Below are positions 2 through 51,522 of a DNA stretch of 64,000 bases, one piece after another. How positions within the stretch are numbered: the stretch's first letter is position 1; every line of letters starts with the position of its first letter. The stretch is from NCBI GenBank assembly GCA_039621445.1, contig CP154954.1, positions 8,434,634 to 8,498,633 of the forward strand. The letters run 5' to 3'. Origin of the DNA: Euglena gracilis. Taxonomy: Eukaryota. The notes beneath the pieces were generated by a model. That model searched no databases, was not told where the DNA came from, and saw only the letters and a list, made by a program, of their open reading frames with translations. A program made the position numbers and the translations under genes.

Positions 2-165
2 CGGGCAATTTGTATTTGCCCAGACTGGAATAGGAGGTGGGTGAAAAATCTGGTGGCTATGGCTGTCAAAAAGATTTATTTTCCCAAGGGGACAAAGTTG
101 TTTGAGGCTGATGGGAGGATTTTGAGGGGTACCCGTTGGGGGGTGTGGGCCTTGTTGGTTGATAG
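2..165 (+). other. Putative C-terminal half of a Dam-like (DIRS-MT-type) N6-adenine DNA methyltransferase domain fused upstream of the protease
   Basis: In-frame translation RAICICPDWNRRWVKNLVAMAVKKIYFPKGTKLFEADGRILRGTRWGVWALLVD resembles the hydrophobic-strand-P-x-W..W segment that follows NPP(F/W) in retroelement Dam-like domains. The catalytic motif would lie upstream of the window. Confidence 0.55.
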
Positions 166-3100
166 AAGGCAACTCTCCCAGGGGGGGGCAGCCCCAGGGA
201 AGAAAAAATTGGTGCGGCTGAAAAAAAGAATGTTGAGGGGGACGAAAACTCGGGGAGGATCGAAGAAACTTGGGGAGGACAGACAACTGCTGTTAAAAAC
301 CCAGATTAAGTTGGCAAATGGGGAGGAAAAAACGGCCAGAATTTTGATTGACACGGGGGCGGAGGCAAACCTCATTCGACAAGGGTTGATAGGGGACCAC
401 CTAATGTATCCTGCTAAGGACCCGCTAAGGTTTGAAACTGCCAATGGGCAAACTTTGGCGGGGGGGAGCAGATGTGCAAAGGTGAAAATGATCCTACAAC
501 AAAATTGGAATGAGGAAAGGGAAATTGAGAGGGTGGAGTATGAGGTTGAATTTTATCAGGCAAACATCAACGTTGATGCCATTCTTTCTTATCCATGGTT
601 GGCGGAGGCAAAACTGGGAATTTTTCCACACCACAAGGCGTTGGTGAAAGACAGCCCAGACCTGATTTTTTTGCGGGGTGTTGAAAGACGGAGGGGTCCG
701 CAAAAATTCAGTGATGACAAAAATTTTTCAGTGGACAATGTGACTGTGGCAGACGGGTCTTCGTTTGGGTTGCAAAAATTTGGTCTTTGTTTGCCATTGG
801 AGGGGTTGGACCAAGAATTGCAATTTTTGAGCGATGAGGACCTGGGGGAGGTTGCCACAAATTTGGAGGGAAGTGACCCCCCTGTGCAAGTTATCAACCG
901 AATGATAATTGCAAGGGAGGGGGAGGACAAAAAAGAGGAGGAACGGGTAGTCAAGTTGAGGGAACAAGTTTTGGAAGATTACAGGGGGACGGTATTTCGG
1001 TCATCGCCATTTCCAGACCCCCCCGAAAGAGGACAATATGGTTATGCATACATACCTTTGAAGGAGGGGGCAAAGCCAACCAGACAGAAGCCTTTTTTCA
1101 TGCACGGTGAGAGGAAAGAGGCACTTGAGAAAATCACACAAGACTGGCTCGACAAAAAATACATTGAGCCAGCCGCAGCCAAAAATTCTGAATGGCTGTC
1201 CCAGACTTTTCCGGTTCCAAAAAAATCCAACGATTTTCCTTGGAGGGGGGTGGTGGACCTCAGGGGCCCAAACAGCCAAACAAGGCGATGCAACTACCCC
1301 CTACCCAAAATTGAAGACATTTTGGTCAAACATGGTGCAAACCAAATGTTTTCGATCATCGATTTGAAGCAAGCTTTTCACCAACAACCCTTGCACCCAG
1401 AAAGTCGACCCATAACGTGTTGTTTTACCCCCAAAGGCATTTTTCAGTGGAGGGTGAACGTAATGGGTTTGACAAATGCCCCCCAACAATTTCAGCAAAT
1501 GATCGATGACCGTTTGACACCAGTAAGGGATATCGCCACAGGGTACATAGACGACATACTGGTGAGGACAACGGTCGGGGAAGGGGAGGATCTAGTGGGG
1601 GCACATGAAAAAGATTTGAGGAGGGTGTTGGAGGTGCTGAAAACAGAACTTTTGGTGGCTGATGAATTCAAAGCCAAACTTTTCGTTGAGGAGGTCGAAT
1701 TTTGTGGACAAATTTTAGGAAACGGGACTAGGAGGCCTGCACCGGGTAAGTTACGAGCGATCGAAAAGTGGGAGGTTCCAAAAACAATTACGGCTTTGAG
1801 AGCCTTTTTGGGATTCACAAATTATTACAATGCATACATTCACATGTATGCGGAAGTAGCTGCCCGGCTGCAAGACAAATTGAAAGTCCCCAGGGAGGTG
1901 GGAAAGAAAGGAAGTCGAAAACCTGTGGAATTTGATGGGGAGGATTTAAAAGCTTTTGAGGAGCTGAAAAAAAGGTTGTGTTCGGGCCTAATGTTGCAAC
2001 GGGTAGACCCAGATAAACCCTTTGTGCTAAGGGTTGATGCCAGTGGGTACGCCGTGGGGGCAACGTTAGAGCAAATGAAGGAGGGGGGAGGAAGACCCAC
2101 AGCCCAGGATGTGATTGAGAAAAAAACTGTGCCAGTGGCTTTTATGTCTCGAAAATTGACCGAGGGGCAAAGAAAATGGACCCCCCGGGAGTTGGAGACG
2201 TATGCCATAATTTTGGCACTACAAAAATGGGAAAGTTGGATTGGATTGCAACCCGTTTTGGTTTTAACCGACCACCAAAGTTTGGAGTCTTGGACAAGGG
2301 AGGTCCTAGACACCCCCAGTGGTCCGGTTGGGAGGAGGGCGAGATGGCATCAAATTTTCTCCAAGTATGACTTGACGGTGGGATATATCCCGGGTAAAGA
2401 AAATACCATAGCGGATATCCTTAGTCGGTGGGCATACCCAGCTTCACAGGCCCTAAGGGATATAAGTAAGCACGGGTCAGCCGAAGACAAGGATGAAATG
2501 GAAAATTTTATCCGGGAGGAAAAAGAAGAGGAAAAACAGTGTTTGGAGATAAGAATCAAAAACCAGCCCAATTTACGTAATGCCTGGATACGGGGGGTGA
2601 CAACCCGTAGTGGCAAAAACGTAACACCTGAGGAGGAAAAAGGAGAGTGCACAAGGAGGGGAACCGAGGGTGGGGTAGACCCAGGAGGAAAAGACACCCC
2701 TGTGGACACCCACTCACAAGGGCCCAGGAAAGAAAAGAAACGAGTTCATTTTTGGGATGAGAAAGTGGGGGGGGAGACGACCCCTGTCCCGGAGACGGCT
2801 GAAAGTTCGAGGGGGGACACTCGTATGGAAGTGGGGGACGCCCTGCCAAGTACGACCCCTAAGGATATTAAGCCCGTATGGGAGCGTGATTGGGGGGAAG
2901 CATATTCCCGATGCCCCACATGGAAAGAAAAATGGGAGGCTACCAAAGGTGGTTCAGTTTGGCCCAAAAGCTATAAAGTCTTGAACGGTCAACTGTTTTT
3001 CGAGGAAAAGTTGTGTGTGCCTGAAAGTTTCCAACCCTTGGTGATTCAAGAAAATCACGAGTTTTTGGGGCACGTTGGCCCTGAAAAAGTTTGGAAACAC

Positions 3101-4357
3101 ATGACAATCCGTTTTGTTTGGGCTGATGAAAAGGCTGCAAAGCAACTCAACCAAAATTGCAGCAAAAATTGTTCCACATGCCAAGCGAGTGTGAGGGGGG
3201 AGAGTTTGAAAGGACCGATCGAGTCCACACCCATACCCCCTGCACTAATGACAAGTGTTGCCATCGATTTGTTTCGAATGCCAAGGGTTTTACACGATGG
3301 GGGGGAGTACGACACCCTAGCCCTTTGTGTGGATAGGCATTCGGGTTGGATTGTGGGGGTTGCATGCAAGGACAAGGGATTAACCGGTGCCAAGTTGGCT
3401 AAGGAAATGGTGAAAAATCAGTGGAGGCCTTTTGGGGTTCCCTCGGTCATCTCAAGTGACCAAGGGAGCCATTTCACAAGCACTTGGTGGAAAAACATGT
3501 GTGCGCTTTTGGGGATTAGGCAAGCGTATTCCCAAGCATACCACCACCAAGCAAACGGGAGGGTTGAGAGAGCCGGACAACAGGTAATGGAGGTGTTGAG
3601 AAAATTGTATGTGGAAGAAAAAATTAATTGGGTTGAAGCTTTACCCCAAGTTTTGGACCGAATTCATGACGTAAAGGGGGAAAGCGGATTGAGCCCATAT
3701 GAAATTGTGACTGGAAGGGAAAGACCATTGGCAGGGGTACCCTACCAACCACCCAAAGAATGTGAGGATTCGGTGGAGTTTTTCCGAAGGATGCAAGACA
3801 TTGATGGGAGGGTGGCTAGGATACTCAACAAAAAGCATGAGGAGGAGGTGGCAAGGATAAATAAGGGGAGGAAAGAAATGGAACCCCTAAAGGTGGGGAC
3901 GACGGTTTGGTATAAGAGACCCGAGGGGTCGGGTGAGAAGCTTGACTCTAGGTGGGTGGGACCTGGGGTCGTGAAGTGTAGAGAAGGGGAACGGAGTTAT
4001 GTAATTGAGATGAAATCTGGGGTGGAGACAAAAGCTCATAGGAGTTTTTTGAAGGAGTATCGGGAACCCCAAGTGGAAGGTAAGGGGGTGCCTCTTTTTT
4101 ACTATAAACGGACCGAAAAAGAAGAAGAGGCATTACCTGATGAGTGGGAGGTGGAAAAAATCTTGAGGCATCGGAAAGGAAAAGATGGAAAGTGGGAATT
4201 TTTAACAAAGTGGGTCGGATATGAGGACGGGGAGGAAACCTGGGAACCAGCTGGAAATTTCATTCACAGATTCAGTGAAGAGTTTGTGAAATATTGTCGT
4301 GAGAAAAAAGTGAAAGTGGACGTAATGTCCGAACTAAAAACTGACGGTGGGCCATAA
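2..4357 (+). CDS. pol: Ty3/Gypsy chromovirus pol polyprotein (PR-RT-RNaseH-IN-chromodomain), 5' end outside window
   Basis: Frame is open from base 2. Protease LIDTGA (~343-360), RT IDLKQAFHQ and YIDD (~1543), RNase H VDASGYAVGA/ELET/TDH, integrase HHCC (HEFLGH..CSTC) with D-D-E (AIDL, SSDQG, VERA), chromodomain WEVEKILRHR..FLTKWVGY..TWEP (~4145-4260). No stops. Confidence 0.96.
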   Translation, partial: RAICICPDWNRRWVKNLVAMAVKKIYFPKGTKLFEADGRILRGTRWGVWALLVDRRQLSQGGAAPGKKKLVRLKKRMLRGTKTRGGSKKLGEDRQLLLKTQIKLANGEEKTARILIDTGAEANLIRQGLIGDHLMYPAKDPLRFETANGQTLAGGSRCAKVKMILQQNWNEEREIERVEYEVEFYQANINVDAILSYPWLAEAKLGIFPHHKALVKDSPDLIFLRGVERRRGPQKFSDDKNFSVDNVTVADGSSFGLQKFGLCLPLEGLDQELQFLSDEDLGEVATNLEGSDPPVQVINRMIIAREGEDKKEEERVVKLREQVLEDYRGTVFRSSPFPDPPERGQYGYAYIPLKEGAKPTRQKPFFMHGERKEALEKITQDWLDKKYIEPAAAKNSEWLSQTFPVPKKSNDFPWRGVVDLRGPNSQTRRCNYPLPKIEDILVKHGANQMFSIIDLKQAFHQQPLHPESRPITCCFTPKGIFQWRVNVMGLTNAPQQFQQMIDDRLTPVRDIATGYIDDILVRTTVGEGEDLVGAHEKDLRRVLEVLKTELLVADEFKAKLFVEEVEFCGQILGNGTRRPAPGKLRAIEKWEVPKTITALRAFLGFTNYYNAYIHMYAEVAARLQDKLKVPREVGKKGSRKPVEFDGEDLKAFEELKKRLCSGLMLQRVDPDKPFVLRVDASGYAVGATLEQMKEGGGRPTAQDVIEKKTVPVAFMSRKLTEGQRKWTPRELETYAIILALQKWESWIGLQPVLVLTDHQSLESWTREVLDTPSGPVGRRARWHQIFSKYDLTVGYIPGKENTIADILSRWAYPASQALRDISKHGSAEDKDEMENFIREEKEEEKQCLEIRIKNQPNLRNAWIRGVTTRSGKNVTPEEEKGECTRRGTEGGVDPGGKDTPVDTHSQGPRKEKKRVHFWDEKVGGETTPVPETAESSRGDTRMEVGDALPSTTPKDIKPVWERDWGEAYSRCPTWKEKWEATKGGSVWPKSYKVLNGQLFFEEKLCVPESFQPLVIQENHEFLGHVGPEKVWKHMTIRFVWADEKAAKQLNQNCSKNCSTCQASVRGESLKGPIESTPIPPALMTSVAIDLFRMPRVLHDGGEYDTLALCVDRHSGWIVGVACKDKGLTGAKLAKEMVKNQWRPFGVPSVISSDQGSHFTSTWWKNMCALLGIRQAYSQAYHHQANGRVERAGQQVMEVLRKLYVEEKINWVEALPQVLDRIHDVKGESGLSPYEIVTGRERPLAGVPYQPPKECEDSVEFFRRMQDIDGRVARILNKKHEEEVARINKGRKEMEPLKVGTTVWYKRPEGSGEKLDSRWVGPGVVKCREGERSYVIEMKSGVETKAHRSFLKEYREPQVEGKGVPLFYYKRTEKEEEALPDEWEVEKILRHRKGKDGKWEFLTKWVGYEDGEETWEPAGNFIHRFSEEFVKYCREKKVKVDVMSELKTDGGP

Positions 4358-38206: not shown

Positions 38207-38491
38207 GCCCAAAGGATGACTTATGGATACTTTATAGGCACATTTTAAGGAGGAAAACCGGACTGTATTTACCAAAGCATGTGTTGTGGAAACATTTTTT
38301 TGTGCATCCAATAAAAGGGAAGAAAACGAGGAAAAACATCAAAACAATGTGCAAAAATAACCTCATTGCATTCATGCATGCACTCCCTCGAGGGGGGCAT
38401 GGCATTTTGACTAATTGAACAATTTGCATAATGATAATAGAATAAGTATTTGACCCAAGATCACAAGGAAAAAGGGGAAACCATCCTGGTT
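38207..38491 (-). other. Nonconventional intron in hAT transposase
   Basis: AAC-CAGGATG...CATCCTT-TGGGC; removal joins DFPQTAPR to AFRSVLTLVILLARL in frame. Confidence 0.65.
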
Positions 38492-39225
38492 CTAGGCGCA
38501 GTTTGAGGAAAATCAACCACGTCCGCAAATGTTCTCAGTTCTACTCCCCTTTGTTTGCATATGTCATGCAACATTTGGCGCTCGAATTGAAGCGATGTGG
38601 GTTGATCAATGTCATCACCATAGAAGCGAAGCATCTTTTCTGCCGACACGGAACGTAGTATGGGGATTGCGATAGTTGTCAGCTTGTTTTTTTAAAAAAA
38701 TTGTGTTTTTGTTCGAATATTTACACTTTTTTTAAAAAAAACCCCAAAAAAGCCCACGGGGTTTTTTGGCAGACCAAAACGTGCCCGCAACGAAAAAAAC
38801 CAACTGTTGAAAGGGGCTTAGAGTCAAGGGGAGGGGTCGGGGACTTTAGTGTTTTGGGCGTTCCATGGGCAGGCTCTCTTCATTGTCGTGCAGAAGAAAA
38901 TTCTCCACATCCAAAATGTTTTTTGCGGCCACTCCATCAACAAACCGCTCCGAAATCCTTTTGGAAACTGCCTCCAAATACGTCTCATACTTTTCTTGGA
39001 AATGTTCCTTTACACTCTTGGGCGCGGGTTGACTGCCATCAAGCGTAGATTTCCTTGCTCGTGGCTGGGTAGGTTCATCAATCCCATGTTTGAGTGCCCC
39101 AATTTGGCAAGCGTCCAAAAGGTTTCAAAGCGCTCCTTTTTCTTGAGGTCCTCCAAAGAATCCCTGACGGTTTCGACGACCTCCTTGGCTTCAGTGAAGT
39201 GAAATTGCACAGTCTGCAGCACACT

Positions 39226-39306
39226 GAAGGCAGAGTTGTTTTGAAAGGGTCAAAACCACGGTGCGACCATGCCATGACAAGGGGGGGGGATGGCAAAACC
39301 CTTATT
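39226..39306 (-). other. Nonconventional intron in hAT transposase
   Basis: AAT-AAGGGTT...AACTCTG-CCTTC; removal gives TGDRAN/SVLQTVQ in frame. Confidence 0.55.
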
Positions 39307-39864
39307 GTTGGCTCGATCCCCCGTCAGGAAGATGAACCTCAGCAAATGAATAGAAAAGAAGGTGTCAAACTGCAGCAGTCGTGTGGCAAACCCATGGGCT
39401 GTAGTCCCAACTTCACTTGTATCTTGGTTGTCAACTTCATTGAAAAATTCCAGCAAGGTCCGGTAGTTGCTGCATATGCCTGCGAGGGATTTCGCTCGCA
39501 TGGTCCACCTCGTTGGGCACAGTGCTGTCAAATTCACCCCTTCATCTGTGTCGCTCGCAACTTCCTTAAACCAGTGCATCCTCTTTGTGGAGTCTCTTAT
39601 GAATGATATCAAGCTGCCAACCAACGTCATCATGTCCCTCATGGTCTTGAAATCCTTCAACGAATTTTGAATCACAAGGTTGAGGGAATGGGCAAAAAAA
39701 AAATAAACATACAACGCCCGTTTCTCTTCCGAAATAACCAATGCTTGCAGGCCATTGAACTTCCCTGCAATGTTGCTGGATCCGTCATAGCCTTGTCCGG
39801 GACAATTAGCAATTTTCAACTGGAACCTTGTCAAAATGTCTTTCAACACAGAAAAAAGGGTAAC

Positions 39865-40096
39865 TGGTCCAGGGCTCTACCAATGTTCGCATGAAAATCA
39901 GGCAAGTACCATTATCCCCCCTAAATGACCCCCTCTTGTCCCGACCAATTCGTGATGTACACACGTTCTCCCATCAAGTCAAAATATTTTCAGAAAAAAC
40001 CCAACAAAACTCCAAAAAAATAGGTGTATTATGATCATTTTAGCACAGAAAATGGGAGGTGAAAGCAGGAGGGAAAAGTGTCGTAGAACCCTAGTT
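39865..40096 (-). other. Nonconventional intron in hAT transposase with hAT-like TIRs
   Basis: AAC-TAGGGTTCTAC...GTAGAGCCCTG-GACCA; removal gives HDVSG/VTLFSVLKDILTRF in frame. Confidence 0.78.
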
Positions 40097-40717
40097 GCCA
40101 CTCACGTCGTGCACTTCATAAAATCCAGACCAAATCTCCTCGTTGTGAAGATCTTCATCAACAATGCGCAATGTGAAGGATAATTGCTCCATGACGGAAA
40201 TGTCGCTCGTCTCGTCCATGATCACGGCAAAATGCTGGGTTCCAAACAGGATTTGGGAAGGTTTAATCTGAAACCTGCCAGTAGGAGGTCTTTTTTCACT
40301 TCTGCCAAATGTTGGGCTGCTGTCTTTTTGCTTGGGGCTAACAGCAAAATGTCGTCCAGGTGGATGAAAAGCACTTTTCCCTCCTTTCTCCATTTTCTTT
40401 CCCAGACTCTCATGAGAGTCATGAATTTTTGTGGCAGGCTGCTGATGCCAAAGCATGCAGCCTGAAACTGCCAAGGAGCTGGGGTCCCCACGGCCAGCCA
40501 GATACCGGCCAGACCTCCTCCTCCTCTTTTTTTCACCAGCCACCGGACAGACCTCCTCCTCCTCTTTTCTCCCAGCCGCCAGCCACGGCCAGCCGCGGCT
40601 GGCCGTGGCTGGGGCGCCTCCTCCTCTTTTCGTGCCTGAGCTTACTTTCTCCCCCGGCTACCACCCCCCCCCGCCGCGCCGCGGCGCCGCCCGCCAGTCG
40701 CAAAGAAAAAAACAAAG

Positions 40718-41815
40718 TCACATACGTACTGGGCGGTAAGGGCAGTGTGGGACGCAAATGGAATTGTACACGTTGAGGACAGAACAGACGACCGTGAAAG
40801 CCCATTCCAGGACATGAAAATCTTTCCCTCGGAATCCGGTGCGGAAAATTTCCCACTTTTTCACTCGGCCGAAGGCCTGTTCAACCCGGCTGCGGTAAAA
40901 TTGATGCAGGCGGTTGTACTCCTCCTCGTCCTTTGTCAGCCCCACACCGGCGGTTCGTTTTTTGGCCGGTGTCAAAAAATTGGGGACCGACTCGTAGGCC
41001 AAATCGGCCAAAACACAGTCGGTAGGGGTCAGGCTTGGGCGATGCAGTCTGGCAAGGGTTGTGTCGGACATGGGGGCAGGATTTCATTGGTCATATGACC
41101 GCCAATGGAAATCCTGCTTGGAGCCTATATGGGGGCCATTGATATATGCAAAAAGACCAAGGTGAGTAACCAACCCTTGAAATTTCATCACTGGCCGCTC
41201 GTACTTTGGCTGGTACCTCCCGTCCCCCTGGAACACCACCACGGGCATGGTGTCCCAGCCCCCCACCACGAAGGGCGGGTAATGTGGAGTGTTGTTGTTG
41301 GGGTGCCGGAGATGAGCCATCGACACCTCTCGAAGGTGGATATGCAGGTACTGCAGTACTTTGATAATTCTTCGCCAAATGCTTTTTCTTGTGGGCTCCA
41401 GTGTGTGGGGGGGAACGAGCCCACCAGCCCCAGGAGTCACCAGAAAAACAGAACAATAATGGTGCCCCCTGTTTGAGAACTCTGTGCCTTGGGTAGTGTT
41501 TCAAATAACCCAATGCAAGCCAGAGGTCCAACCTTCCAAATTCAAAATCAGGGTCCAAAGTACCAGAATAGGAGGGGTTGTCACGGGAAGGAAACAAACT
41601 GACAAAAAATGCAAAATGTGGAAAAAAATTTGATGCACAGGACCCTGTCCTGAGCCCACCAAATATTTTTGATAAATAATTTCGCATACAAAACTTGGCA
41701 CACCAATTTTCCCCACGACGTCTTCCCGACCTGCCGCGGACTCCCAGAATTCCTGTGACACAATTTGAAAAGGCAAAGCGAGAAGCAAAGCACGAGAACA
41801 GTCAGTCAAAGACAT
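40718..41815 (-). CDS. IS5/PIF-Harbinger DDE transposase (DDE_Tnp_4-like), 4 exons, 297 aa
   Basis: Exons 41815-41651, 41543-41475, 41425-41120 and 41071-40718 join in frame with no stops; catalytic WDT, LADLAY, YN..RSRVEQAFGRVK. Confidence 0.9.
41072..41119 (-). other. Nonconventional intron, 48 nt
   Basis: C|AAG-CAGGATTT...AAATCCTG-CCCCC|A: CAG at +4, CTG at -8, hairpin, Y|R at both junctions; contains an in-frame stop. Confidence 0.88.
41426..41474 (-). other. Nonconventional intron, 49 nt
   Basis: C|AAA-CAGGGGGCACCA...TGGTGACTCCTG-GGGCT|G; removal restores the frame. Confidence 0.88.
41544..41650 (-). other. Nonconventional intron, 107 nt
   Basis: GGA-CAGGGTCC...GGACCCTG-ATTTT|G; removal restores the frame. 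Confidence 0.85.
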
Positions 41816-42109
41816 AATGTTCGGACTCCACACGAAAATGTATGAGGGGGGTGATCACTTTGGTTGGAGGACCGATCCTTCGAACGGGGGGGGGGGACGA
41901 AGCGCCAGGCCCACAATTTTTGACCCCCCAAAAAGACCAAAATTGACATTCTCGGCACTTTTCAGGCAAAAACTTGCCAAAAATGCAAAAATTTTCAGCG
42001 CTAAGCGCCGGAGGAAAAAATTGATCCTTTTCAAAAAATTGCCTCAACCACACCGGGTTCTGGCCAGGGGGGGGGGGAAGGTCGCTCCTCTCCGCCCCAC
42101 ACAGTGTGA

Positions 42110-44616
42110 CGTAACTCTTCTGTGAGTTTGTACGTCTTATCTGACACACATCTCAGCATCTGCACTTGAATTTTCTCTCGTCCCGTCCAAGCCGAACGCA
42201 GTACCCCAAATTCTCCTCCTTCACACTCAATCACTGTCCCCAGATATGTGCCTGCGGGCACCATTCGTCTCCTTGACCGATTACTGGCGTTGCAGTTCTC
42301 ACGATACACAGCGTCCGCCAGCTCGGCGTCCGTCAGAACACGACAACAGGGAAATCCTCAACCACCCGCAAACCAGGCAGGAGTGTAACAGAAATATGAC
42401 AAAACATGACATGACAAAACTTTCTGACCTTCCCTGGCTGGGGTCGGGTGGGTTTTCGTTTTGCGTATCGTTTTCGATCGTCATCCCCACCACCATACAC
42501 AGGGGCAATTGCATCTCTCGACGTACAGCACACCCACAGGTTCCTCACAAGGGAGCTTTCAGAACTGAATGAAAAGTCTCCCTGATCCAGACTATCCTCT
42601 TCAGGGGTAAATCCCAGCGTGGAACGGTCACGCCACGTCCGAACCATGGATTCACGGAGGGGGGGGCCAAACCCACCCAACCAATTACTCTCAAAAATGA
42701 CCCCACCCCCCCCCCTAGGGGGAGGGGTCACACAGCATCAGTAAATCAATGGTCCGAACACCTGGGTCATATGACAAGTCCTTGTGCACTTTCCACCCCT
42801 GGGTAATTTCTGCCAGGATTTCCTGTGCGATTAAAATGCCGTAATCAGAAAACCCTGCCCTGTGAACGGAGTTCTTGCTGTTTGGGATAATTTTTTTCCA
42901 ATGCATCTGACGACCACGTAACTGGTTTCAAGCCCACCAATGGATTGGGAGTGCATACAGGGTATGTTGGGGCTTGCACTGGGAGAATGTCGGGGGCGTC
43001 ATGGGCAGTTGTCGATCGCGAACTGCTGGGGGCCTGAGCTTTGGGGAGCCAAAAAGTGTGTCGATACCAGGGGTTTTTTTAAGACCGGCGGACCCACCCA
43101 CCCTACCCCCCCCCTCCCCCCCCGGGGGTCCAAACTTAAAAAAAACCCTGTTCGATACACGCGATCACACGTCAATCGAACGGCCAGCCCAGAGGGATCG
43201 CCCGCAAACTGCAGTATGCCACAGATGATCTCCTTGAGCTTGTAATCGCACAGCATCACCACGAGCCTGTTGTCCAAATTCCTTCGGCTGCGCACAACAG
43301 TACTCTGCTGCACACCTTTGCATTGACCATGGGACGCAGCACACAATTTTCGTACGTCAATTTTTTTATGCTTCAGGCTTCGTAACTCAAAAAGAGAGCT
43401 CCAGAAACCCACCCAAACCATCCCAGAAAAACTCCCCGACCTTTCAACCAGGGACTCTGAAACTAGTCTGAAACTCGGCAACGGCCTGCCAGAGCAATGG
43501 CGTGATCAGTGGCCGAAAGGTGCCCCGGGGTCCTCTGCATCTTCGTATGTGAGTGTTGACCCCACAGGAATCAAAATGCCTGCCGCATCGGGGACAGGGC
43601 ACCTTGGTTTGCGTTCAGGCTTGGGCTGAGATATTTTACAGCACCATTGGCCCGGTGCGCCGACCCCAACCAGCCAACCCAGTGACGGAGCATGTTTGTC
43701 GGGCATTTCCTTGACACGTAGCAGCATGCTTCCCCAGGGCCTGCGATGTGACCAGGCCAATGCTTCCATGGGGGAACCATTCCAGTCCATGGGGAACCAA
43801 TTACATGGGGAATTTTATGACATTTTTTTGTGTAGAAAACACCCAAGGGCAACAACCCGCTGGAAAAACAAGACTGGTGGGCAGTGTGCGAAACAGTATT
43901 GCCAGAATGGTGGAAAAAGAAAATTCTCACTTCATGTAGAATCCCTGCGTGGCCATGATGAGGTGAAGCACTGACGTGGCTGTGAGGAAGCCGGTACGAT
44001 GGCACTTCGAACATCCCAAGCTGGTGATCTCCACAACAGGTTCCGCTCCTTCTTCCTGCCCACGTTCCACCACAATCACCTCGTCCTCAGTGGTGGGGGA
44101 TGCTGCAGCCTCCATTGCCAATGCTGATGGAGACAGATAGTAGCTGGAAATTACAAGTGGGGAAAAAAACCTGAGCTCTCTGTCCTTGCATCTGCCTCAG
44201 TGTTCTGTTGACCAACTTCCATACGGACGGAGGCTGCTGCTTGAAGGGTGTCTTGTGCAACACCTATTGCGAAATAATTTCAGATTGCGTCAACTTGCAA
44301 AAACAAACCAGATTTCCTTTGCCGTAGAGCAACATGTCTGTCATATCGCTTCACCAGCGCAGCAGTGGCATCAGCCGGTAAGAGGTGGGTGCACGCAAGA
44401 GAAAAGCATCTCGTAAACCTCCCTCGGTAAAGACTTCTGGGTCAAAGAATTGGGTGCCTTTTGTCTGACAGCACGGGCAGTCTTTGTGAGCCAGCTGCCT
44501 TTGAAGCGACGCTGTCGCAGGCCTTCTTGTAGGAGGGTCATTCGTAAGTCCTGACATATTTCTGGGCATGAGGGTAACGGATTACCAGCAACCTCCGCCA
44601 ACACTTCTGTGTCCAT
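42110..44616 (-). pseudogene. Second, multi-exon gene of the Harbinger element; product unknown
   Basis: Chain of minus-strand ORF segments (44371-44616, 43927-44121, 43506-43790, 42999-43481, 42715-42906, 42333-42731, 42031-42309) upstream of the transposase. Exon structure only partly resolved. Confidence 0.55.
43068..43150. mobile_element. 83-bp hAT-like MITE that doubles as a predicted intron (43063-43153, minus)
   Basis: TIR CAGGGGTTTTTTTAAG / CTTAAAAAAAACCCTG; 8-bp TSD GTCGATAC/TTCGATAC (7/8). Confidence 0.85.
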
Positions 44617-47600
44617 GACTGGGGAAAAGTAAGATTAAAAGGTTCACGCGAAAAAAATGTTCGCTAATTTCCCATCGCGGCCAGCCAGACCTCCTCCTCC
44701 TCTTTTTTTTCCCCAACACTCAATCCAGCCAGACCTCCTCCTCCTCTAATCCCGCCAGCCAGCCGTGGCTGGCCATGGCTGGCCAGACCTCCTCCTTTTT
44801 TTTGCCAGCCAGCCAGCCGCGGCTAGCCGCGGCTAGCCAGATACCCCAGCTCCCAAGTTCCCCCCCCCCCACTTGCATGCAAACATGTTTCCAGGCTGCT
44901 GTGCAGCTTTAGGTGAAAATAAGCATCTTTCAGATCTATTTTTTCACGGAACCAACCCTTTCTCAAATATGAAATATGGGAAGATGCTTCCCATGTGTTC
45001 CAGTCTGAATTTCTGGGGGGTGAAATGGTGATTTAACTGTCCACAGTCCGAAATTAGTCTTTCCTTTGTCTTTTCCCCCTCTTTTTTGGAAATGTCGAAA
45101 TAAAGGACAAAAATGTTTTGCCTCCTCTGGGGGGATTTGCCTGGTTGCACCTGCACATTCGTATTCTCTCAGAATTTTTTGGGCAGTCATCATTTCTTGG
45201 GGGGTTTTGAAAGGAACTTTTAAGGACATCTGACGGGGGAGGGGAAGATCTGCCCTGACCCCTTCCCTTATCAGGTTTAATACCTCTCTGCTGGCACCTG
45301 CTTTGACCCAATGGGGAATGCTGGCCTGCAGTGCCTTGTAGGGGGGCACCCCTGGGTGTAATGTGTCTGGGGATTCCACAGGCCCCATCACTGGGGTCCT
45401 TCCCCCTGGTTGCCCCATCACTCGCGTCACCCCTGGCTGCCCCATCACTAAGGCTGCAGCTGGCCCTGCCATAGGGCTTCCCAAATACAGGCTTTCCCCC
45501 TGTTTCTGAATGATGGGGGAAGGTCTGTGTCTGCAGTGGGGAGGTACATATAAAGCTGGGGTGCCTGGGCTGATTATCTTCAAGGGGGGGCCTGTCTGAG
45601 CCAATCTTGGGCCTCCCCCCCAAGGGCTGATGTGGTGATTGTATTGGCCACCATTTGCCTTCAGGGCCATTTGGCCTCCATTGGCACTCAGGCCTGCATG
45701 GCCTCCATTGGCCTTCTCTCCAGGACTTCTCTCTTGTCTCTTCTCTGTCCCTCTTGATTCCCCATATAGGCCACCATGGCCTTTTTTTTTGGCATGCTTC
45801 TGGGGGGTTTGTGTCTGAAATTCCTGGGGGGAAAGTTGGACATACCTTTCCCCAATGGGACCTTTCCAGGCTGGGATACTGTCTGCCATAGCCTTGCCCC
45901 TGGGCCCACTGCCCTCTTGAATGATGGCTGCCATAGCCTTGATTCTGGACTCCAGGTCCTTTTTGATGATGGCTGCCATAGCCTTGATGATGACTTGAAT
46001 CCCTTGTATTTCTGATAATTGTTGAAAGGCTGCCATAGCCCTTGCCATGTCCCCTGGAAGGGGGGGGACTTAGTTGTTGGACCTGTGATGGTAATTCCCT
46101 TCTGTCTTCTTGTCTTCCTCACCACAGTTGTCCATGATCCATGGCCATTTTCATGTTGAGTGGGGGATTTTTGAAATCTCTGATGTGGTGGGGGCTGGGG
46201 GGTTGCGATGGCCACGGACTTACGTGTTTCTGCCGCCCCTCCAGCTTCTGCAGCTGCTGCTGTGTCTCCACCTTCCCCAGCTTCAGATGCCTTCTTGGAA
46301 GTTCTTTGAGGTTCTCCTTGGCTTTCAGATTCATTCTTCATGGAAGTCCAGTTATTGATCTTGTTTTAGTATTTGCAATGCTTCTGGAAATAATTCCAGT
46401 TGAACTCGAAGAGTTGAATTCTTCCTCCAGGAGGTTGAAGGTCCGAAAAAAAGTTCGCTCCACCTGTTGATAAAGTGATTGTAGTTCGTGAATGTAGTAC
46501 TCCTCGTAAATAATTTCAATTGAACTCGTCGAAGTAAAATTCTTTCTCCTTGAGGTCGAAGGGCAGAATTAGGAATCAGCCAACTCCGGCAACAAAAAGC
46601 AGTCAGAAGCACCCCCAGCGCACGCACAAACACACCAGAACAGAACAGCCGGCAAGGAAAGCAGGACCTCACCACCTCGCAGTGCGGAGCCCGAATGGTC
46701 TCAACTTTCCAACGTGCGACAATTTTTGAAGTAGAACATGATCAGAAAACATGGGCAAGATCTCGTTCTGGATCTCCGGATGCACCATTTTTAATGCTCT
46801 CCCTTAAGCCTCTCACCCATCTGAGGGATGTCTCTCCTTCCGACATTCAAAAGTTGTTCAAAGTTTGACTCCTTTTCGACCTGATGAACGAACACCAACA
46901 AGGTGTATTTTTTTCAACCCCCCCAAAAAACAGCCAAAATAGGACACAAATATTGTAGAGAACATAGGTGTCACAAGCTGGAATGGCATCGTCGTTTTGA
47001 CCACTGTAAATTAGTCGCCATTTTTAGGACAGCGGGATCGTCACTGACAGCCACTCGGGTCAAACGCAGGTTCTGCGTCAAACGAAAAAATTATGTCAGA
47101 CGTACCCGTACATTTGTCTGCCGGACAGCCAAAGCAGGCTGGAGTGGTGAAATCTGCCGGATGTGCTGCACGTAGGATACCAGGTTCCCCAAGAAGCAAA
47201 CCCTTTCAGTCGTCCCAAAACCCGGAAACGTTTTCCACACAGAACAGTAAGAAATGGAGTTAATTTTTGAACCTCCCCCCCCCCCCCCGCCCAAGAAAAC
47301 AAACCCTTCACTCCAAAACTGGTCCCCAACTGTGGCACCAAAACTGGTCACCACCTGTGGCACTAAGAGTGTTCCCCAAACTGCCCAAGGTTTGGACCCA
47401 AGATGTGGGAGGGGGATCTTAAACAGAACAAGAACGTCAACAACAAACAAAGACTTTTTCAAAAACCCTTTTGGCAAAGAAAAACAAAAACAAGTGAAAC
47501 AACCAAAGCCAAAGGCGTACAGCGTGCAATTTACAGCAACAGGGTCCTGTTTTTTTGCAAAACACCACAGGACCCTTGACACCTTCACTTCATTACTCTT

Positions 47601-49315
47601 CTCTCTTCTTGGTTTATCTTCTTCTTCACATTTCAACCTGTGAGTACAAGGATGACAAATGAAAGACAAGATCTGCAGCCAGTGCTCTGTTAAATGGCAG
47701 CAAAAGTTCCAAAAATGTAAAACACGACCAGAAAACCACTAGAACGCTCAGAAAACGACATAAAAACAAATCGCACAACAGAAGACATGCCACAGAGAGG
47801 GTGGGACTCAAAATTGTCACTCAGCAGACCAAATTTTGGAAAAAATGCCACATTTTTGAAAGTGGTCCAGATGCACTAGAAATGACCATTACAATCATTC
47901 TTCAAAAGACACCTTCTGATGGGCCACCTGCTTCAATCTTCAAAAAATCTTGCATCAATGCATTCCTCATCTTCCAAATAGCTTGTATCTGAAGTTAGAA
48001 GAAAGATAAAGCCCAATTCCAAAAGGGAAAAACACCTGAAGGTAAGAAGATTACGAGCGCGAGAACCAAGGCGCTTTGCGTGAAGCCTAATCAGCCCGTT
48101 CGTTGTACAACTTTACCGCTTGTCAGCCTTTTTTTCAAAATGTCAAGTAATCTGTCACACAGTTCCGTTTGTCAGGGGGTCGGGGGGCGGCCGCCCCCCC
48201 CCCGTGATTTTGGAAAGAAAAATTTTTTTGCAGCATGAATGTGATATTTTTCTTGTAATGCCATGTTCAATGGTTCAAAGGGCGTGACGTCTCGGCTGCC
48301 TTCGGCAGCCACCTTGCCAGTTAAAAGCACATTTTTGGAGAATGAAATTGCAAAATCCATTACCGTCTCGGCCGCCTTTGGCGGCCGAAATAAAAATCCT
48401 TGAAAAAACCCCACGCCACTTCTTGATGTTTAAACCGGCGTTTGAGACGCCGGGTTCAGGACAGAACCGGCGCCCCCCCCCCCCACGGGTTTTCCGGACG
48501 CCGGTTCTGTCCTAAAACCTGGCGTCAGGAACGCCGGTTCTGTCCAAAACCCGGCGTCCGGTTTGGATTTTGGCCACAAACCGACTTTTTTTTCCCTCCT
48601 TTGGTGCTAATTGTTTTTGGGGACCCCACAAACCACTTTCACCTTGGCTGTTTGAATACAAACTGATATCCCCATATGTCCCCCTCCCTCCATTTTCTTG
48701 ACCAGCCGAGTTTGGGGGAAACTCTTCGGGTCAACGAAAAAAAATGAGTTTGCGCAAAGTGAAAAAATGGCTTCTTCACGCCCCCCCACCCCCCCCAGGT
48801 TGCGAAGTCGACAGTTGGGTTGAGTTGGGAGGTTTCCAAAGGGGTTCTACCCATGATTCGCTCTCTAGCTCAAGTTTTTGGAGCACTGGACTTAAAAAGG
48901 CGTTAGCGTCTCGGCCCCTTCAGGGCCAGAGGGACAGAAAAAAGTACATTTTGGTTGTGCCATGAAAAAAATTTTCCTCGGCGCTTCGCGCTGGGGAGAA
49001 AACGGATGTGCTCCAAATTTTGTCGGTTCCCCCCCCCCCCCCCCCCCCCGGCAAAAAATTGTTCCGACATCGCTGGTAGAGAACGTTTTTTTTATAAAAG
49101 CATTTGGACTTCATTTTGACTCCATTTGACGAAATTTGTCAGACATTCGGACTCCATTTTGGACTTCGCGCGACCGCAAAAAAAAATGCACAGGTTACAT
49201 GGGTCATGTTGGGCTTGTGGAGGTTTACATACATGATGAAAATACACATTGGAAGGGATCCCTTGTGCAGCAAGGTATTGCAAAGTTTGAAAAATGGCCT
49301 TCAAAGCAACCCTGG

Positions 49316-50725
49316 CAGGGATGTGCGTCTTAAAAAACGGTCGTTTAAAACAGCGATTTAAATCAGTTTAAAACACCCGAGCCCCGGAGACGTATAAAAC
49401 AGCCGGCATACGTCGTCAAAGACCCGTATTGAAAAAACGCGAGTACAGCAGTTTCCACACACAGAAGGACAAACTGCTGGGTGTGCAAAGGCTCTGCCTT
49501 TCGGCGCAAAAGGTCATAAAAACTTTTCCGAGAACCGCAGGGAGTTGAAGGGGGAAAAAAAATGGCTGCCAGGGGCAGACATTATCCACTAGAGGGGAGG
49601 TGTCCTTTTTTCTTTTGACCCCCAATTCAGGCCACCTGTGACCTAAAGCTGCCAAAAACCACGACCTGTGCCCCAAAACTTGCCACAATCTGTGGCCCAA
49701 ACCGACCACAATCTGTGGACCAAAAACTGTTTTATGAACTGGCCACGTCCTGTGGCCCAAAACTGGCCACGACCCGACCCAAAGCCAACGACCCGCAACC
49801 CAAAACTGGCCACGAGGTGTAGCCTCAAAACTGGCCTGAGTCTGGCCCAAAACTGGCCACATGCTGTGGACCAAAAACTGTTTTGTGGCCCAAAGCTGGC
49901 CACGACCTGAACGAAAAGTCAACGACCTGTGACCCAAAACTGGCCACGACTTATGGCCTAAAACTGGCCACCGCGTCTGGCCCAAAACTGGCCGCCGCGT
50001 CTGGCCAGGTTTGGGCCAGATGTGTTGGCCAGTTTTGGGTCAGCCCAAAAAGCACCAGATAACCATTTTGTTGCAAACAAGACAAGCAAAAACCTTCCAG
50101 AATCAAAAAATATACAAATTGTCTCCGAAACGGAAACCAAATGGAGCAGTTTAACAGGGAAATGCTCAGGTCCAGATTCTCAATCCTTCCAATCATCATC
50201 ATGCCCTTCCGACAACTGCAGAAGAGAAAAATGGACAATCACTGACAGAATTGTTTGGCAAACCTTTGTCATGGGGAGCTTGACAATAAAAATCCAACAC
50301 AAAGTTCTTCACCAGGCTCAGAGCCTCGTGGTGCACCCCAGGGAGTTCAGTGGTCAAGTTGTTGATCACCAGGCTTCAAGACACCAGTCTCAACACGAGC
50401 ATCAGGCGCAGTTCCAATACCAGTGCGTACCAATGTCCCTGCACTGTTGTGCGTGGTTACACATCCGGCCATCTCAACGTCGCACCCCTTGCAAGTGGCA
50501 CGGGTACGTCCATCAAATACTTGATGTTTTATGAAGTAATGCCAAATACCATGTGCCGGTCTTCCACTAGGCATTGTGCTGTAAAAGGATAAAAACAGTT
50601 GGGAAGGCCATACGAGTTAGGAATGACGACCATTTCGCGATCTGAATCGTACTAAACTGTTTAAATCTAGTTTTAAACGTTTAAAACGTATTAAACTCTT
50701 CCGGGATGTTTAAATTCCATCCCTG
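49316..50725 (-). mobile_element. Non-autonomous hAT (Ac-like TIR) with a BED zinc-finger remnant
   Basis: TIR CAGGGATG/CATCCCTG; perfect 8-bp TSD AACCCTGG; IWHYF..ATCKGC at 50347-50574; internal AAAACTGGCCAC/TGTGGCCC array. Confidence 0.92.
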
Positions 50726-51522
50726 AACCCTGGCGTCTTTCATGGCCAAAATCTTTGCACTGGACATGACTACAAGGACAGGGACTTGGTTCCTCAAAGC
50801 AAGCTTGAACTGCGGCACGATGAAACTCATTCACTTCGTGCTCCTTGAACCTCTGAACTGCTTTCTTCCAATTTTTGAAACCATTCTCAACGAATGCTTG
50901 CCTTGCAGAACTTTGATGTGAAGATATCCTAAGCATTGGTGTTTGCCGCAAACCACTCAACCCCACTTGAATACTCACCAAATTGCCTTGCAATCAAGGA
51001 TCTCCATTTTTGCACCGGAAAGCCCAACTCTCCCCACAAGCACAAATGCAATGCCAATGCTAGTCGGTGGCAGAGGCACCTTCAATGAAACTGCTTCTCG
51101 GCAAACCTTGCAGAATGCCAAACCTTTTCAGTGTCATGAACCAACCTCTCAAACATATCTTGCCAATTTGTCAAGAACCGCCGTCCGGCGGTAGCAATAG
51201 GGGATGGCTGGCCATTAGAAGAGGGCAAGGCACCAACCTTTGGCCTCAAAAACTCGTCCATAGGGGGTTGAGCCCCCGCGTCCCCCGCGTCCCCCCCCGC
51301 GTCCCCCCCGCGTCCCCACCAAGTGGCTTGGTATCCTTTTTTGAAGAGGCTTTTCTGCAATGTCCCGGCATGCTTGACGTGATGAAACAAAGAAAAGGGG
51401 AGAAGGAAAAAGAACGTTGCAAAGTGAGAAGTCAAATTTTTATCCTTGCCACTCAAAAAAATGGCAGTTGTTTGCTGGAGCCCAGGCATGGGGGGGGGGG
51501 GTCCCGTGGGACCCCCCTGCCG

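Follow-up and report, generated by a model that had tools for sequence, protein, structure and literature searches.

An abundant 83-bp, most likely hAT-type element of Euglena gracilis whose minus-strand transcript would carry the nonconventional splicing signal

Introduction

The origin and the removal mechanism of the nonconventional introns of euglenids have been open questions since the 1990s, and such introns account for about 72% of all introns in one species (PMC12501133). A derivation from MITEs (miniature inverted-repeat transposable elements) was proposed in 2014 by Milanowski (PMC3935182), a source that bears out the statement, in an earlier sequence-only reading of the DNA studied here, that a MITE origin had been suggested before. 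The idea was repeated in 2025 in the paper that defined the splicing code (PMC12501133), and in a 2024 review the CAG and CTG motifs are marked as the inverted ends of a transposon, and the repeats at the junctions as resembling duplications (PMC11282704, Fig. 3D legend). In their searchable parts, PMC3935182 and PMC11282704 name no superfamily, duplication length or repeat family, nor do they remark that the 3-nt and 5-nt spacers of these introns add up to a duplication length; in the searchable papers, these introns have apparently not been linked to any actual family or superfamily of transposons or to a duplication length. Here we describe an 83-bp element within a stretch of 64,000 nucleotides of Euglena gracilis (contig CP154954.1, positions 8,434,634 to 8,498,633; hereafter the window), which is most likely a hAT-type MITE with an 8-bp target-site duplication, and whose minus-strand transcript would carry the signal for nonconventional splicing.

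According to the accessible parts of the knock-in study in Euglena (PMC12501133), the code places a CAG 3 nt into the intron and a CTG that is followed by 5 (or 5-6) nt; the stretch that follows the CAG and the one preceding the CTG must pair with each other, and the next exon starts with a purine. Each of these features was examined by knock-in; fully artificial 50-bp introns having only these features were spliced, and CGG-CCG variants were spliced too (PMC12501133). Older work had reported a preference for pyrimidine|purine (Y|R) at both junctions and for A and C at exon positions 2 and 3 (PMC4770533). Intron 4 of the gapC gene in Euglena agilis strain ACOI 323, which is nonconventional and strain-specific, carries eight-nucleotide direct repeats at its junction (PMC4770533). 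It shares this property with the element described here; its authors suggest a repair scar.

Among other systems, the introners of Micromonas, stramenopiles and dinoflagellates (PMC11282704) are, like the present element, DNA transposons of small size that have inverted ends. Part of their splice signal comes from the duplication, and the element is removed together with one copy of it, as is predicted for the MITE. However, introners are spliceosomal, with GT/GC-AG ends and duplications of 3-5 nt, whereas the MITE has C|G junctions and a stem-based code. The hAT superfamily is defined by an 8-bp duplication and inverted ends of 10-25 bp (PMC8961557), and the Ac/hobo/Hermes group prefers the target nTnnnnAn (PMC10368747, PMC8961557). 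MITEs of hAT type, as described in these two papers, resemble the element in their 8-bp nTnnnnAn duplication, 16-bp inverted ends and high copy number; they differ from it in that a transposase gene bearing the ends of the element was not found for it, the nearby hAT-type gene being decayed. Merlin elements also make 8-bp duplications, and two Merlin families are reported in Euglena gracilis; all Merlin families have ends of at least 24 bp that begin with GG (PMC8101967).

Anatomy of the element

The features found are collected in Table 1. On the minus strand, the order is GTATCGAA (43158-43151), the 83-bp element (43150-43068), which starts with CAGGGTTTTTTTTAAG and ends with CTTAAAAAAACCCCTG, and then GTATCGAC (43067-43060). 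The arms of the inverted repeat are complementary at 15 of 16 positions, with 51 nt between them. The flanking 8-mers are identical at 7 of 8 positions in the 8-nt register alone; flank lengths of 4-7 and 9-12 around the element gave 0 to 4 matches only. The sequence-only reading had described an 83-bp element with CAGGG..CCCTG ends and an 8-bp duplication, and both its coordinates and its description proved correct.

Table 1. Features at and near the element, in coordinates of the window.
Feature	Coordinates	Strand	Remarks and basis
83-bp nonautonomous DNA transposon (MITE)	43068..43150	.	G-rich centre, ends CAGGG...CCCTG; repeat detection and X1 depth
Terminal inverted repeat, low-coordinate arm	43068..43083	.	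16 nt, 94% complementary to 43135-43150
Terminal inverted repeat, high-coordinate arm	43135..43150	.	repeat boundary exactly at 43150
Target-site duplication copy	43060..43067	.	minus strand GTATCGAC
Target-site duplication copy	43151..43158	.	minus strand GTATCGAA
Predicted 91-nt nonconventional intron (element and one duplication copy)	43063..43153	-	sequence only
48-nt insertion of the same geometry	41072..41119	-	AAG CAG ... CTG CCCCC, next base A; splits Harbinger-type transposase frame
Decayed hAT-superfamily transposase gene	39250..40300 (wider extent 38460-40300)	-	protein search; no ends common to the MITE

When the window was scanned for CAG...CTG ends with an inverted-repeat match of at least 10/12 and a flank match of at least 7/8, the element was the sole match, and only one of 100 second-order Markov simulations of the window gave any match to the same scan; therefore, the structure is not a product of chance. 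The 16-nt end pattern (up to two mismatches) matched only the two arms of the element itself in the window. No further copy of the element was found within the 64 kb, Rfam gave no match in the window and exact-pattern scans of metagenome contigs for the element returned 0 stretches. The folding energy of the whole hairpin was unexceptional (z -1.43; 19 of 200 shuffles folded at least as well); the terminal stem was present in both the minimum-energy and the centroid structures.

Copy number and empty site

Public sequencing runs were mapped on positions 40700-45200, namely a DNA-type run (X1), a run labelled RNA by guess only (X16) and two raw RNA runs (X21 and X24), of each of which about 5-6% was read (12.9 and 8.3 million records). 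In X1, depth reached 90,234 and 101,904 in the two 151-nt bins holding the element as against 219-1,405 in ordinary bins, values that are contig depths summed per bin and not copy numbers. The element fills a third or less of each of its two bins, and in depth it exceeds the flanks more than 200-fold. At least 43 X1 contigs matched up to the terminal base 43150 and then diverged, with a flank agreement of only 0.37. Such divergence into unrelated flanks means that one repeated unit is present in many places, having a fixed terminus at the 43150 end and varied surroundings. Variants of the element family without 35 central bases were found among the X16 contigs.

One X1 contig (record 4; 220 nt, depth 38.6) is a diverged paralog of the host sequence, with 19 other letters in 169. 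It aligned up to 43067 and again from 43182, leaving 23 letters between, and in our own comparison 16 of these 23 equalled the window at 43159-43181 without a gap. Record 4 therefore is without exactly 43068-43158 (91 nt, the element and one 8-mer), and it is an empty-site paralog. The existence of diverged paralogs also means that the host sequence is itself repeated DNA. Thus the identification as a MITE, made earlier from the letters alone, is borne out by the very high copy number, by the abrupt divergence of contigs at the terminal base and by an empty site, and the search for empty-site paralogs that had been proposed along with it was answered by this one diverged contig.

Fit to the nonconventional splicing code

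The minus strand reads GTATC|GAA-CAG...CTG-GTATC|GAC, in agreement with every rule of the code. The predicted intron is composed of the 3-nt spacer GAA, a CAG at +4 to +6, the 16-nt stem, a CTG at -8 to -6 and the 5-nt spacer GTATC, with G as the next base. [quoted passage not shown] Only the minus orientation fits the code, since a plus-strand exon would begin with T. Cutting after base 5 of each duplication copy yields a piece of 91 nt (43153-43063), both junctions of which are C|G. The joined product is identical for all cut registers from 0 to 7 and is the pre-insertion sequence, and because 3+5 equals the length of the duplication both cuts fall in the same phase of the two copies. None of these registers gives GT...AG, so that the GT/GC-AG ends of spliceosomal introners are absent. 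After removal of the 91 nt, the frame is open for 117 codons up to the junction and for 72 codons beyond it. The geometry proposed in the sequence-only reading (cut after base 5, 91 nt, CAG at +4, CTG at -8, Y|R at both junctions) thus reproduces the published code, and its arithmetic, by which the element and exactly one duplication copy are removed, is sound.

Published nonconventional introns, in the accessible text, share with the MITE the CAG at +4 to +6, the CTG at -8 to -6 and the 3-nt and 5-nt spacers, as well as a stem inside the CAG and CTG and Y|R at both junctions (PMC12501133, PMC3935182, PMC4770533). The downstream exon would start with G-A-C, which equals the published R, A, C preference (PMC4770533). 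Unlike those introns, the MITE is a demonstrably high-copy element with an empty-site paralog, and is known here from DNA; its surroundings yielded no expressed gene. From the fit of its letters to the code, we infer that the MITE would be competent for splicing.

The events envisaged are as follows. An abundant 83-bp element, presumably mobilised by a hAT transposase, would have inserted into low-copy, transposon-derived sequence and duplicated an 8-bp target. As the 16-bp inverted repeat has CAG...CTG at its base and is enclosed by the 8-bp duplication, a minus-strand transcript would carry the exact published signal. The cuts specified by this signal would part base 5 from base 6 in both copies of the duplication, and ligation would rebuild one intact 8-mer, so that the RNA would return to the pre-insertion sequence.

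We give a probability of roughly 75% to the reading that the element is an abundant MITE with a duplication of 8 bp, most likely a member of the hAT superfamily, and that its minus-strand transcript would carry the noncanonical splicing signal. Several points weigh against it. The X1 depths are sums over contigs, into which the G-rich centre of the element may draw unrelated contigs. Among the matches listed, contigs diverged only at the 43150 end and not at 43068. As the duplication is identical at only 7 of 8 positions, the empty site of 91 nt would be explained equally well by an element of 84 bp and a duplication of 7 bp, and 83+8 is preferred only because it makes the inverted ends symmetrical. 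The window contained no cognate autonomous element bearing these ends, so the superfamily call draws on one duplication and an end motif. The extension of the reading to euglenid introns in general, taken up below, calls for caution, because the offsets have a rival explanation in the geometry of the cutting enzyme and because families of intron sequences are not reported.

Cut offsets and duplication length

We tentatively put forward the hypothesis, possible though short of probable in our judgement, that most euglenid nonconventional introns descend from CAG...CTG-ended, 8-bp-duplicating (hAT-type) transposons, the 3-nt and 5-nt cut offsets being matched to the duplication. A fresh insertion of such a transposon into an exon would be erased scarlessly at the RNA level. 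As a hypothesis this is coherent, consistent with published data and apparently unstated in print: in the searchable literature (subscription journals and supplementary files being outside the search), neither hAT nor an 8-bp duplication is stated as the explanation of euglenid introns. If true, it explains why Y|R recurs at both junctions and why junction repeats are abundant. It also explains the A at the second exon base, found in 43 of 55 introns (PMC4770533), as this base becomes position 7 of nTnnnnAn when the duplication is cut after its base 5. Support for the idea that 3+5=8 comes from the published 8-nt repeat at the newly gained intron of Euglena agilis (PMC4770533), and the MITE family would, on the same condition, be a living source of new introns. 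In the window, 424 CAG...CTG pairs with an inverted-repeat match of at least 9/12 were found; 0, 1, 2, 3, 4, 5, 6 and 7 flank matches occurred in 30, 111, 125, 102, 41, 8, 5 and 2 of them, respectively. This distribution is near chance, most of the pairs being themselves chance pairs, and it speaks neither for nor against the general claim.

It is rather unlikely, in our view, that the 3-nt and 5-nt offsets are mere geometry of the cutting enzyme and that their sum of 8 is unrelated to target-site duplication, an explanation that is itself speculation. Such offsets would follow from a 2-nt 3' overhang across the stem, of the kind left by RNase III-type enzymes. An acceptor spacer of 5-6 nt is tolerated, CGG-CCG variants splice and artificial introns without a flanking repeat were spliced (PMC12501133), the last of which means that the splicing machinery needs no duplication. 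However, enzyme geometry fails to predict the 8-nt repeat at the newly gained intron, the agreement of the two junctions in Y|R or the A that 43 of 55 introns have at the second exon base (PMC4770533).

The locus offers a concrete, abundant element, the ends and 8-bp duplication of which reproduce an experimentally defined code, and through this element a transposon origin of the nonconventional introns of Euglena becomes testable. If the idea holds, it would connect the chemistry of a specific transposase with the geometry by which a non-spliceosomal system splices, and would explain how a genome can tolerate mass insertion into exons.

Transcription and splicing at the locus

The sequence-only reading had taken the element as caught in the act of being a nonconventional intron. 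This part was not supported: no joint skipping 91 nt was present in any of the 4 runs (X21 and X24 to the extent read), the raw RNA runs had no reads on the unique flanks of the element, and the flanking frames were without a credible homolog. The check for spliced reads across the joint of 43154 to 43062, which it had proposed, likewise gave none in the 4 runs, and a search of sequencing runs listed no RNA run with the sequence.

We therefore regard it as unlikely that the element is located in the exon of a gene that is expressed, and that it is excised here as a 91-nt nonconventional intron, even though all code rules are satisfied on the minus strand and removal keeps the frame of 117 + 72 codons open. 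X16 contigs of low depth (3-6) lie on 42892-43034, 43171-43410 and 43466-43657, and hint at weak transcription. X16 looks unlike plain DNA, since a retroelement-like repeat at 44928-45078 had a depth of 3.66 in it as compared to 587,259 in X1. Against removal from an exon stands, besides the absence of the joint and of X21 and X24 depth on the unique flanks, the nature of the reads and of the frames. Reads placed on the 4.5-kb stretch numbered 9 in X21 and 27 in X24, and 9/9 and 20/27 of these, respectively, lay only partly on it. Five X24 reads carried an end of the element and then other flanks, which means that some copies of the element are retained unspliced in RNA. The flanking open frames had no Pfam match, and the 117-residue upstream frame found, among 1.84 billion representatives, one match alone, a weak one to an unrelated repetitive protein (E 3.6e-5). 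The host sequence moreover has diverged paralogs, i.e. it is repeated DNA, in a transposon-rich stretch.

Superfamily assignment

The duplication of 8 bp agrees with hAT, being identical at 7 of 8 positions and in the 8-nt register only, in a single copy that may also be read as 84+7. The inverted repeats of 16 nt (15/16 complementary) fall within the 10-25 bp of that superfamily. The target nTnnnnAn appears on both strands, as GTATCGAC on the minus and GTCGATAC on the plus, with T as second and A as seventh base of each, in this one instance. The start CAGGG of the element fits YARNG, which we take to be the hAT end motif. A search between 30 and 50 kb for an autonomous element, in the form of a long-range pair with YARNG ends and a duplication of at least 6/8, gave one weak pair, 49271-50915, which was judged to be chance. 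Merlin does not fit, as the element starts with CA and has arms of 16 nt. The best-fitting superfamily for the MITE is most likely hAT, a call made from the letters of a single insertion; the earlier attribution to hAT, for which the 8-bp duplication, the nTnnnnAn target, the short inverted ends and the CA start speak over Merlin, is supported to that extent.

It is quite improbable that the element belongs to another superfamily with 8-bp duplications (Merlin, P or Mutator-like), or that the 8-nt repeat is a scar of double-strand-break repair. Two Merlin families with such duplications are known in Euglena gracilis (PMC8101967), the 8-nt repeat at a new intron was taken as a possible repair scar by Milanowski et al. 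2016 (PMC4770533), and the window yielded no hAT element with matching ends. However, Merlin ends begin with GG and are at least 24 bp long (PMC8101967) as against the CA and 16 bp of the element, and a repair scar does not account for a unit of very high copy number that has a fixed end and differs in its flanks.

Neighbourhood of the element

Conventional splice signals also lie beside the element, and passive removal, either inside a GT-AG intron (43170-43035, 136 nt, minus strand) or upstream of a trans-splice acceptor, is very improbable: the X16 contigs end at 43171 and 43034, on the minus strand a GT (43170-43169) follows 43171 and a CAG (43037-43035) precedes 43034, the contig ending at 43034 has 9 further unaligned letters, and by our own reading removal of 136 nt gives the same downstream frame as removal of 91 nt, but no joint skipping 136 nt was reported in the mapped runs, the X16 depth is only 3-6 so that the contig ends may be mere coverage gaps, and the other X16 gap (43411-43465, 55 nt) showed no convincing intron signals by eye.

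The surroundings of the MITE are a mosaic of transposon genes. Directly downstream of it on the minus strand is a Harbinger-type transposase, the frame of which is split by the 48-nt insertion (Table 1). The frames 41084-41500 and 40718-41083 aligned to an uninterrupted homolog (P0025, 213 aa) with 49% and 53% identity, respectively. P0025 is continuous across the insertion point, reading ...GPHQGA and then MSDTTLARLHRP (from MSD...). The frame 40718-41083 matched DDE_Tnp_4 in Pfam (E 1.7e-11); Pfam found nothing on the first half of the Harbinger-type frame, for which the alignment to P0025 was used instead. The 48-nt hairpin (41119-41072) folds well, with z -3.38 and only 3 of 200 shuffles at least as good. 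Its 8-nt flank register has 5/8 matches, which is suggestive of a decayed duplication and not significant alone. Homology thus supports 41072-41119 as a likely nonconventional-type intron inside a transposon gene.

The claim that older introns with this geometry lie nearby is partly upheld, by this one homology-supported case, whereas the other window hairpins of this geometry lack validation. As a group, the latter showed no surplus of identity between their flanks. A scan for hairpins of code type, the removal of which joins long open frames, returned 25 rows, most of them noise in the GC-rich part of the window, and it missed the validated 48-nt case because no bulges were allowed. Another hairpin with this geometry, of 49 nt (41474-41426), is situated a little upstream of the part that aligned; it lacks validation. 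At 40580-40611 there is a perfect 32-nt hairpin (12/12, CAGCCACGGCCA arms) with intron-like geometry and 1/8 flank matches, which adjoins a 38-nt tandem repeat at 40504-40577.

About 3 kb from the MITE is the remnant of a hAT-type transposase (Table 1). Protein search with this frame gave 23 proteins at E <= 0.001 (best 1.6e-74), with PF14291 (DUF4371) in 19 and PF05699 (hAT dimerisation domain) in 13 of the 23; the frame itself gave only a weak DUF4371 match in Pfam. A tblastn search of the frame against plasmids, an unsuitable collection, gave no match. The gene is broken by frame changes, and a conventional-looking intron (GAC|GTGAGT near 40108) was noted in it by eye.

Other repeats are present around the element. 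The G/C-rich palindrome 42698-42735 (arms 42698-42710 and 42718-42730), on both sides of which X16 contigs diverge, resembles the centre of the 83-bp element and may be a related mini-element. The segment 41908-42058 is an extremely abundant repeat (depth 397,162 in X1 and 1,978 in X16), bounded by G-runs and without CAG...CTG ends. The top DNA depth of the mapped stretch was at 44626-45200 and beyond, with up to 772,824 in X1 and only 3.66-21.4 in X16; this high-copy repeat adjoins long frames at 44963-46118. On the plus strand, positions 2-4357 hold an uninterrupted frame of 1,451 codons which by eye is a Ty3/gypsy-type polyprotein with protease, reverse transcriptase, integrase and chromodomain motifs, and which may be a young retrotransposon copy.

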